DNA of 64,000 bases from NCBI RefSeq assembly GCF_036365525.1, contig NC_090403.1, positions 44,703,095-44,767,094 on the forward strand, in the 5' to 3' direction. The DNA comes from Heterodontus francisci (taxonomy: Eukaryota). The notes beneath the pieces are model-generated. The model ran no database searches, was not told the origin of the DNA, and saw only the letters and a program-made list of their open reading frames with translations. The translations under genes were made by a program, and so were the position numbers. This document shows, piece after piece, positions 18,353 through 22,206 of this stretch (positions are counted from its first letter, which is position 1; every line of letters starts with the position of its first letter).

Positions 18353-18395
18353 TCACTTTGACCTGGCCCTCATCTTCCTCCGCTTGCGCTTCAAT
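18353..18395 (-). CDS. RPL41: RPL41 exon 3 ([13 protein letters not shown])
   Basis: Acceptor gtttctgttcctgtatag; TGA stop at 18355-18353. Confidence 0.95.
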
Positions 18396-21300
18396 CTATA
18401 CAGGAACAGAAACAACTGAGTTTGAAATGAACCATGAACTGCTAATTGCATTTGCTGAAATTAATGCAGCTAACACAAAGAGTGAAAATAGTTAAAATTT
18501 CTTTTATAGTATAGCACTGGTATGAGTGGAAGAGTTTTCCTCTTCTCACCTGTATTTGCATGTTACATTCTTTCTACACAATGCACTGTTCAAAAAAGAG
18601 AAAAAATGTTGTGTGTGTGTTTGAGCTGGCCTACTATGAAATGCTGGGGTACAACCAGAGGTCTGTAGGTATAACAATAGGGTTTTCCCTGTTTTTCAGT
18701 CACAGAAGTCTTTTTTTTTTTAAATTCATTCACGGGATGTGGGCGTCGCTGGCCAGGCCAGCATTTATGGCCCATCAGAAGGTGGTGGTGAGCTGCCTTC
18801 TTGAACCGCTGCAGTCCATGAGGGGTAGGTACACCCACAGTGCTGTTAGGAAGGGAGTTACAGGATTTTGACCCAGAGACAGTGAAGGAACGGCGATATA
18901 GTTCCAAGTCAGGATGGTGTGTGACTTGGAGGGGAACTTGCAGGTGGTGGTGTTCCCATGTATTTGCTGCCCTTGTCCTTCTAGTTGGTAGAGGTCGCGG
19001 GTTTGGAAGGTGCTGTCGAAGGAGCCTTGGTGCATTGCTGCAGTGCATTTTGTAGATGGTACACACTGCTGCCACTGTGCTAGTGGTGGAGGGAGTGAAT
19101 GTTTGTAGATGGGGTGCCAATCAAGCGGGCTGCTTTGTCCTGGATGGTGTCGAGCTTCTTGAGTGTTGTTGGAGCTGCACCCATCCAGGCAAGTGGAGAG
19201 TATTCCATCACACTCCTGACTTGTAGATTGTGGGGAGTCAGGTGGTGAGTTACTCGCCTCAAGATTCCTAGCCTCTGACCTGTTCTTGTGGCCACGGTAT
19301 TTATATGGCTACTCCAGTTCAGTTTTCGGTCAATGGTAGCCCCTAGGATGTTGATAGTGGGGGAATTCAGCAATTCTGGGATTCTGTGAAGCTTGGTTTG
19401 AGCCACAGTTCCAAACTTCAGTCACTGGGGAGCACTGTGGAGCAGCTGTCAAACCCCTGACAAATTTATCTGCATTTTTCTCACTAACAATCTTCTCAAT
19501 CCAAAAGGAATAGATGTGTGTATCCTCTCATCCTGTGAGGGTGAGATTCTTAAAAGTAAAGAAGAAATTCTCAAAGCTTTTTTTCTCCATTATTGTGCTG
19601 TGTTGTAACCACCAGAGTACAGCAACAGTACTTGGGAAACCAAACAGTAACTGAATATTGGGAAGATCAAAGCCATTGTTTTCGGTCCCACCACAAACTC
19701 GTTCCCTAGCTGATGCCATCCCTCTCCCTGGCAACTGTGAGGCTGAACCAGACTGTTCTCAAGCTTGGTGTCATATCTGACCAAGTTGAGCTCCTGACCA
19801 CATATCCGTGCCATCACTAAGACCACCTGTTTTCACCTCAATCATACCACCCAACCTCCCCTGCCTCAGCTCATCTGCTACTAAAGTTCTCATCTAAACC
19901 TCTAGATTTGGATCATTCCAATGCACTTCCACATTCTACCCTCCGTAAGCTAGAAGCCATCTAAAACTCAGGTGCAAGTTAGGGGATGAGTAGCAAAGTC
20001 CTGTTCGCCCATCATCCAGTTTGCTGACCTCCATTTAAAACAAAAGTTATTGCTTAACAGAGAGTCAAAGTTCTCATCCATGTTTTCAAATCCCTCCCCA
20101 TTTCTAATCTCCTGCAGCCCCACAATCCTCAGATACCAGCACTCTTCCAATTCTGACCTCACTCATATCCCTGATTTTAATTGCTCCATCATTGGTGGCC
20201 GTGCCTTCAGCTGCCAAGGGCCGAAGCACTGGAATTCTCTTGCTAAACCTCTCTCCCCTCGTTGCTCCTTTAAGACGCTCCTTAAAACCTAACTTTTTGA
20301 CCAAGCTTTTAGTCATCTGCCTGAATATCTCTTTACGTGGCTCTGTGTCAAATTTGTTTTGATAATGCTCCAGTGAAGGGCCAGGTTTTTTTTTTTTTAA
20401 AGTTAAGGGTGCTATATAAATATAACTTGTTTTCATTCCAAATTGATGCTTATTATGGTACTGCTAGTAAACAGCTGATATTCCATTGTGGAAAGATTAA
20501 GTAAACTGTTCAATTTTAACTTTGTAGTGGTCACTTTATGTCAAGTTATAAGTTGTTTAAAAGTTGCCATCATTTATGTTCCAATTCTTATTTGATTTAA
20601 ATGCTGCAAAGTTTTGTCATTGCCTCCAAAGCTGGAAGGAGGAGGCAACCAAACACATAACTGAACTTACACTATGTATTTGAACTTACACAGAAGTTTT
20701 TGGTTCATCGTTCCAGGCTTGCAGTCAGAAACATATTGGGGTGAGTGATGATACTCTTGTAATCATAGGCTGCCTAGATTCAGTTATGAGAGTAATCTAG
20801 GACACAGAGGCCTGAAGTATCGGAAGGAGGGCAAAAAAGTCTCAAAACGAAAACCCAGCCTACTGCACAAATTTGACTCCCTCCTGTCTGGAAGTCAAAT
20901 AAACTCCAAAGGGAATCAAAAAGGGTGCAGAAAGCAAAATAGGACAGGTAGCCAGGAAATAAGGCAAGAAAAAGCAACAGAACAAGGCTTCACTTTAAAT
21001 TTGATTTCCCAAAAAGGAATTGAATTAGGGAGACAACAGCTAGTCAGGAATGTGTTTGGGATTGAAGTAAAAAAAAAAAGGCCATCCCTCAATTCACCAA
21101 TTGAAATTAATGAAATAAAAAACCTGGAAAATTGAAGGTTTATACAGACCTGCGCATCCTTTTCTTCCTCCACTGGAGATTAAAGAGAGAAAAAAAATAG
21201 ACCATTAGAATTTTTGTCTTTTTCTTTCTAGAATGACATTTGTTCTTACATGTATTATTTATATTTGTCAGAAATTAAAGTGCACAGTTTACTACAACTC

Positions 21301-21723
21301 ACTAATATAGAGCAGCTCCAGACAAAGATTATGCTCAATAAAATGCAAGCTAATTTGGTTTGCAATCACTTCTCCTTTATATTAACAATCCACATTGTGT
21401 AGAGGATAGCCATCAGTCAGTTGTCCTGAACCCATATACCTGCTCTGTTCCCATTAACTATTCATCAAATTTCAAACATTAACATGGCCTCTGCTTCAAT
21501 CACTAACTCTGCAGTGATGGAATACACAGTCTTGCATAAAGGATGCTTCTCTTACTTCCCATTCCAAATCTTTAGCATTTAAGCTAATATCTATAGCCCC
21601 TCAAATCACCAGAAAGTGTTTTCATTTGTCACAGTTTTAAAGGACTCTCATCAAATCACCCCAGTCACTCTTGTTCGGGCAAAAACAGTTCTGATAAAAA
21701 GGTCCACACCTGAAACACCATTT

Positions 21724-21762
<39 letters not shown>

Positions 21763-22206
21763 AATTCGGAGTTTTAATGACAGCAGTTTGTTTTTTGGCT
21801 CACATCCAGTGTTTGGATGGTAATTAGAACGGTATCCAACTAGTAAACCCCACAATCAGCATGAGGGAAAAAGGCGAAAGGCCAACCACGTGTTACATAA
21901 ACCCAGTCGAATATATTTTTTCTAACTGAAATTAGTTCTGTCGGAATTAGAAACTTGAGTTTGTGCCCCCTTTTTTTTAATAAAATGGCACCAATAGTTT
22001 AAAATTCTCCCCATCTGAAGATTTAATCACCCTCATCGATTAAATAAAAATTAGAGGGGTGAGGCCCCAAATCCCCTCAACATGGCTGTAGCCTTCACCG
22101 GAAACACAATGGGGTTGAGGGGAGAATACCTTCCACACAACATTTAGCACTTGTTACTTTCTTTAAATTATATTGGGTTTATTCTTTTCCTCACCTTGGC
22201 TCTCAT
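18353..22206 (-). CDS. RPL41: Ribosomal protein L41 (eL41), 25 aa, three coding exons
   Basis: Exons 22206-22195, 21172-21150 and 18395-18353 with GT/AG sites splice to [25 protein letters not shown]; Kozak AAACCATG; minus-strand AATAAA ~18187-18196. Confidence 0.95.
18715..19368 (-). mobile_element. LINE family A 3' fragment in RPL41 intron 2
   Basis: [27 protein letters not shown]...[13 protein letters not shown]-rich tail at ~18710-18722. Confidence 0.85.
19650..20430 (+). mobile_element. L2-like LINE 3' fragment
   Basis: IGGRAFSCQGPKHWNSL...FKTLLKT.LFDQAF and tail GTGCTATATAAAT typical of L2 ends. Confidence 0.7.
21150..21172 (-). CDS. RPL41: RPL41 exon 2 (23 nt, WRKKRMR)
   Basis: Acceptor ttttctctctttaatctccag, donor gtctgt. 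Confidence 0.95.
21726..21757. repeat. (TA)n microsatellite
   Basis: Direct. Confidence 0.95.
22195..22206 (-). CDS. RPL41: RPL41 exon 1 coding part (MRAK)
   Basis: ATG AGA GCC AAG followed by donor gtgagg. Confidence 0.93.

Follow-up and report, generated by a model that had tools for sequence, protein, structure and literature searches.

Human RPL41 (eL41/eS32, PF05162; 12q13.2) encodes a basic peptide of 25 residues and is on a list of TOP mRNAs, that is, mRNAs with a cap-adjacent C followed by 4–15 pyrimidines (PMC7407576, excerpt). The mammalian protein fills bridge eB14 and steadies subunit rotation, and when it is lost, rotation, elongation and fidelity change (PMC13485352, excerpt). 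Outside the teleosts the gene is considered to be single-copy, and its small exons cause gene callers and tBLASTn surveys to miss it. Teleost rpl41a and rpl41b are two intact, intron-bearing genes in one genome which specify identical proteins and are assigned to the teleost 3R. A chordate survey, in whose sample there is no cartilaginous fish, reports RPL41 duplicates from this event only and a single copy for tetrapods and gar, and RPL41 is absent from the list of 2R-duplicated ribosomal proteins in the excerpted text (PMC7072992). The pairs RPS27/RPS27L, RPL22/RPL22L1, RPL3/RPL3L and RPL7/RPL7L1 are likewise intron-bearing, lie on paralogous chromosomes and specify near-identical proteins; those of Rps27 and Rps27l are interchangeable, and the two genes are kept by subfunctionalised expression (PMC10313321, excerpt). 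A term search of PMC4219774 gave no mention of RPL41, and among the matches listed in a literature search, which lay mostly outside the subscription journals, none dealt with RPL41 paralogs of cartilaginous fish.

The window analyzed here comprises 64,000 nucleotides of Heterodontus francisci contig NC_090403.1 (C33 below). It contains an RPL41 gene which, like the human one, specifies a basic peptide of 25 residues, and which differs from it in lying between an HSP30 cluster and KAT2A, in possessing Ala22 and in apparently having no 5′ TOP. All of its parts are on the minus strand. Coding exon 1 (22195..22206, 12 nt) contains the ATG, with an A at −3, and is followed by a GT donor at 22194; intron 1 (21173..22194, 1022 nt, GT-AG) leads to micro-exon 2 (21150..21172, 23 nt), and intron 2 (18396..21149, 2754 nt, GT-AG), which has a weak donor (GTCTGT) and high-copy repeats inside, to coding exon 3 (18353..18395, 43 nt) with the Ala22 codon GCC and the TGA. 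The acceptors of both introns are pyrimidine-rich. The 3′ UTR (18187..18352) ends at two overlapping AATAAA signals (18196–18187). Splicing of the window sequence bears out the description in the initial annotation of 12-, 23- and 43-nt exons spread over 3.85 kb, with Kozak and polyA signals, that give an intact eL41 ending in MRARSK: the exons sum to 78 nt, or 25 codons plus TGA, and the C-terminus is RARSK. The product is identical to PDB chain 4v6w_Cn (60S ribosomal protein L41) at 25/25 residues, and equals the commonest PDB chain (11hg_41 group) at 24/25, the sole difference being residue 22.

Transcript evidence was drawn from assembled contigs of four runs, presumed to be RNA, from two organisms and three studies. 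In all four the RPL41 contigs skip 18398–22186, joining 18397 to 22187 with 13 letters in between; when the 8 and 2 letters compatible with the intron ends as well are added, these make up exactly the 23 nt of exon 2. The contigs omit both introns, and the window gene is therefore spliced, with all three exons joined across the junctions at which spliced reads had been sought. The two spliced introns rule out a processed pseudogene, as had been claimed from the letters. In three runs the cover of the 5′ leader (22207..22261) extends to about 22235, 22237 and 22261; the 5′ end of one contig consists of some 30 further letters, not displayed, which may be adapter. Because the covered leader is without a pyrimidine run of at least 5, the nearest such run being at 22301, the transcript is likely to be of the non-TOP type, with the reservation that contigs cannot mark true starts. 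A longer 3′ end probably exists, since contigs continue beyond 17900, past the polyA signals.

On the opposite strand the KAT2A contigs start at 22523–22538, and the RPL41 contig that reaches furthest ends about 260 bp away. The first exon of KAT2A (22523..22785, plus strand) is head-to-head with RPL41, and the gene runs past 51600; one of its exons equals human KAT2A at 37 of 38 residues, which identifies KAT2A and not KAT2B. The gap between the two genes (22262..22522) has no contig in any run, a TATA-like sequence at 22288–22282 and, on the minus strand, two motifs (22486–22467 and 22320–22301) which we take to be ZNF143/SBS-like. Such motifs are typical of bidirectional promoters. We infer that the gap is a divergent promoter common to RPL41 and KAT2A, and it is from this shared promoter that the window transcript is likely to come.

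The other neighbor is an HSP30/HSPB11-like small heat shock cluster (134..13248) composed of four open copies and a split copy (9056–9772). An HSP20 domain was found in all four cluster ORFs tested, and both neighbors of RPL41 are thus those named in the initial annotation. In the Atlas, HSP30 is confined to Chordata. Further HSP30 copies, one open and one broken, are present to the left of the window (C33:44.688–44.698 Mb). The copy closest to RPL41 (12523–13248, minus strand) points away from KAT2A (22523, plus strand), and removal of RPL41 would put the two head-to-head, like human HSPB9 and KAT2A. The head-to-head orientation of the human pair is that given in the initial annotation; among the papers listed in a literature search, none was evidently devoted to it. 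The order in the window is RAB5, HSP30 cluster, RPL41, KAT2A. RPL41 aside, this agrees with a human gene list of KAT2A, HSPB9 and RAB5C (PMC4320828, excerpt), and the claim that the human pair has no RPL41 between them stands on that list. From the same list and the chordate survey (PMC7072992, excerpt), the KAT2A-side RPL41 appears to have been lost in mammals.

A pattern of exon 2 plus its splice sites has three exact matches in the 6.0-Gb genome and none in a reversed control. There are three complete RPL41 genes, all with the same 12/23/43 coding split: the window gene, a gene on C7 (C7:104127069–104129400) ending in RQRSR, and a gene on C51 (C51:15871867–15864887) ending in RQRSQ. The intron positions are common to all three, as would be expected of duplication at the DNA level, and the possibility that the window gene is the only intron-containing RPL41 in the genome does not hold. 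When two mismatches were allowed in exon 2, the whole genome gave 17 matches (5 in the control), which represent the three genes, three retrocopies and 11 purine-rich chance matches; no fourth intron-bearing RPL41 was found in this search. One of eight exon-3 matches, that on C15, was dropped as chance. Compared with ohnologs of the RPS27/RPS27L type, RPL41 has here three copies and not two, and its main copy appears to differ from that of bony vertebrates.

Five intronless copies (on C11, C25, C48 and C1460, and at C33:60.36 Mb) all have the codons of the C7 gene, and four of them were seen with the C7 3′ UTR and poly(A). The copy at C1460:90598 is without 21 bases of exon 2, in frame. A C7-type retrocopy matches Pfam PF05162 (E 2.9e-11), and its product differs from that of the window gene at two residues; an exact database look-up of the C7-type peptide gave no match. 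The non-coding first exon of the C7 gene sits in a CpG-rich promoter. Because two of the retrocopies start inside the pyrimidine tract of this exon, the C7 gene is predicted to have a TOP-type start by the published definition (PMC7407576, excerpt). Given this CpG-rich, TOP-type start and its role as source of all five retrocopies, it is likely to be the housekeeping, bulk, germline-active gene.

The three genes are found on contigs that share several families. RAB5 genes occur once each on C2, C7, C33 and C51 (4 of 7 motif matches; the remaining three, on C4, C8 and C36, belong to different Ras-family genes and were set aside), and the ERBB domain-IV family matches on these four contigs, with one gene apiece, and on no other. 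miR-196 is on C2, C33 and C51, and miR-10-type hairpins are on C33 and C7, their a/b assignments being those we presume; three of the five loci from the mir-10 search were dropped as presumably of miR-99/100 type. KAT2 is only on C33 and C2, PA2G4 and RPS26 are on C51, and ESYT is on C2, C51 and C7. The C7 RPL41 lies about 24 kb past an exon of PIKFYVE, which we take to be at 2q34 in human. From the microRNAs, the neighbors and the positions of the human genes, we infer that C2 corresponds to the HOXA, C33 to the HOXB, C51 to the HOXC and C7 to the HOXD chromosome. Humans have three RAB5 genes; the one on the inferred HOXD contig (C7:101299800) is a fourth, in which DMAVGK replaces ESAVGK.

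Together the four contigs make up 7.8% of the genome. When contigs are weighted by length, p for three copies falling on three of them is ~1e-4, and with the C51 copy taken as given it is 0.003; weighting by gene density would raise p. Of the retrocopies, 1/5 is on a contig of this set. Like ohnologs, the RPL41 copies occupy separate members of a quartet of paralogous chromosomes. On C2, no RPL41 was found in the 150 kb between RAB5 and KAT2B; an exon-2 look-alike at C2:150935787 (4 mismatches) was rejected, having no exon 1 or 3.

Close to the C51 gene are SMARCC2 exon 1, at 9 kb, and MYL6/6B, at about 55 kb. Since SMARCC2 and MYL6 also lie near human RPL41 (PMC6262175, excerpt), the C51 gene is likely, from its position, to be the orthologue of human RPL41, and the separate Gln22 copy that had been predicted for a locus of the human 12q13.2 type was found here. 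The MYL search also matched C5 and C6 and missed C2, so that it lends weak support. PA2G4 and ESYT1 are 10 Mb and 11.8 Mb away, unlike in human, where both are neighbors of RPL41, and the stretches of C51 searched at these two genes (70 kb at PA2G4, 80 kb at ESYT1) contained no further RPL41. SMARCC2 exons occur on both strands (C51:15.77–15.86 Mb), the SWIRM-assoc exons on the plus and the first and a late exon on the minus strand; this switch amid long tandem repeats suggests a local inversion or a misassembly. A tRNA-Ile(AAT)-like element was called by ARAGORN downstream of the gene.

Exon 3 and the UTR of the C51 gene had no contig of their own in any of the four runs, which is not proof of silence, and in the 9 kb upstream neither a CpG island nor a clear first exon was found. 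The gene may be restricted in expression or decaying. An array of a 32-bp satellite, at least 90 kb long (C51:15881182–15970998+), begins 9 kb upstream of its ATG, and could hide or silence the first exon. The shark X is the HoxC chromosome (PMC10620051; bioRxiv 10.1101/2025.02.26.637739; excerpts), with which the presence of miR-196 at the tip of C51 agrees. A general exit of ribosomal protein genes from C51 was considered and rejected, an intron-bearing RPS26 being present there. Intronless RPS26 copies without stops (C1:12309969–12310277 and C24:43022206–43022505) are possible working autosomal retrogenes, and six degraded tandem copies of RPS26 are found on C17.

Any two of the three proteins differ by one or two residues, with pN 0.04–0.09 and pS 0.63–0.99, so that synonymous sites are near saturation. 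The closest pair is C7/C51, with 12 differences against 17 and 19 for the others; 75 coding bases are too few to date the duplication, and the comparison covered saturation and the closest pair. Gln22 is common to both members of this pair, as is an acceptor immediately upstream of the ATG. The alignment of the two 3′ UTRs is better than that of 200/200 simple shuffles, a weak control. Their closeness fits the grouping of Hox chromosomes into A/B and C/D (PMC10972751, excerpt).

Residue 22 toggles between Ala and Gln across eukaryotes: among PDB eL41 chains, Ala is found in three fungal chains and one that we take to be fly, and Gln in mammals, wheat and chain 9vth_Lo. A single Ala-to-Gln change on the C/D stem would explain the pattern here if early chordates had Ala. 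The suggestion that Ala22 may be the ancestral residue is favored by the fungal and presumed fly chains and opposed by those of wheat, mammals and 9vth_Lo.

We consider it probable that the three genes are ohnologs of the two early vertebrate genome doublings which have been kept by dividing expression and not function. Their ohnolog origin, judged on position, gene structure and divergence, is in our estimation very probable, and partitioned expression is a plausible, somewhat favored, mechanism of retention. The earlier proposal of a second, 2R-derived RPL41 is supported and indeed exceeded by three intact, intron-bearing copies on three quartet members. Under the ohnolog scheme the copy on the HOXA chromosome would have been lost and bony vertebrates would have retained only the HOXC copy, while here the HOXD (C7) copy would supply the bulk of eL41. 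The window copy, expressed from the promoter shared with KAT2A and without a TOP leader, would furnish a smaller supply outside TOP/mTOR control, and its product, like any other eL41, would sit at bridge eB14, where it would steady the rotation of the subunits. The Ala22 and Gln22 forms are probably interchangeable, and partitioned expression would be the simplest account of retention, as for Rps27 and Rps27l (PMC10313321, excerpt).

The absence of a common neighbor within about 100 kb on each side of the three copies, where the shared families are 59 kb to more than 10 Mb away (RAB5 is 59 kb from the window gene and 2.8 and 10.7 Mb from the other two), would also suit a later duplication or transposition at the DNA level within cartilaginous fish, without whole-genome duplication. 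So would the order on C51, unlike that in human, and the saturated synonymous sites, which would allow any age above roughly 200–300 million years. Such an origin does not account for the placement of the copies on different members of a set of four contigs making up so little of the genome, or for the agreement of the C7/C51 pair with the published C/D grouping, and we judge it highly improbable. That the window gene is a passenger of the KAT2A promoter, under little selection and heading for loss, seems hardly credible. Its distance from the KAT2A start is about 260 bp, it has given rise to 0/5 retrocopies and in run X1 it has a contig depth of 311.7 against 25000 for a 31-nt C7-type contig, which is a poor measure of expression level and a hint only; yet at pS 0.99 against the C7 gene it has kept its two introns with their four splice sites as well as 23/25 residues, and it is spliced in two organisms.

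The remaining alternatives give Ala22 a function of its own. One would make it the mark of a specialized class of ribosomes, present under stress or in certain tissues, in which the dynamics of bridge eB14 are altered. The position of the gene beside a heat shock cluster, the effects of RPL41 loss on rotation, elongation and fidelity (PMC13485352, excerpt), and the conservation of Ala22 in the contig of organism B, where none of the 10 differences listed is in exon 3 coding bases, point in this direction, though the contrast between 42 coding bases with 0 changes and about 450 UTR bases with 10 is not significant by itself. Sole-copy eL41s across eukaryotes have either Ala or Gln at this position, the window protein equals 4v6w_Cn throughout, and the proteins encoded by Rps27 and Rps27l are interchangeable (PMC10313321, excerpt); we therefore regard a distinct function of Ala22 as very unlikely. 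A broader scheme is in our opinion unlikely: cartilaginous fish would have an RPL41 family of three genes, of which the HOXD copy would have taken over the housekeeping role as the human-type copy became X-linked, and the KAT2A-side gene would supply a TOP-less Ala22 eL41 that evades repression by mTOR/LARP1 and alters bridge eB14 in cells which are stressed or specialized.

With three kept copies, RPL41 joins the few ribosomal proteins that have ancient duplicates in vertebrates. Should the principal shark gene not be the orthologue of the human one, a core housekeeping gene would offer a clear example of hidden paralogy. As the subunit bridge of RPL41 adjoins the decoding centre, three genes which differ by one or two residues and have different promoters may provide a small natural test of dosage versus specialized ribosomes.
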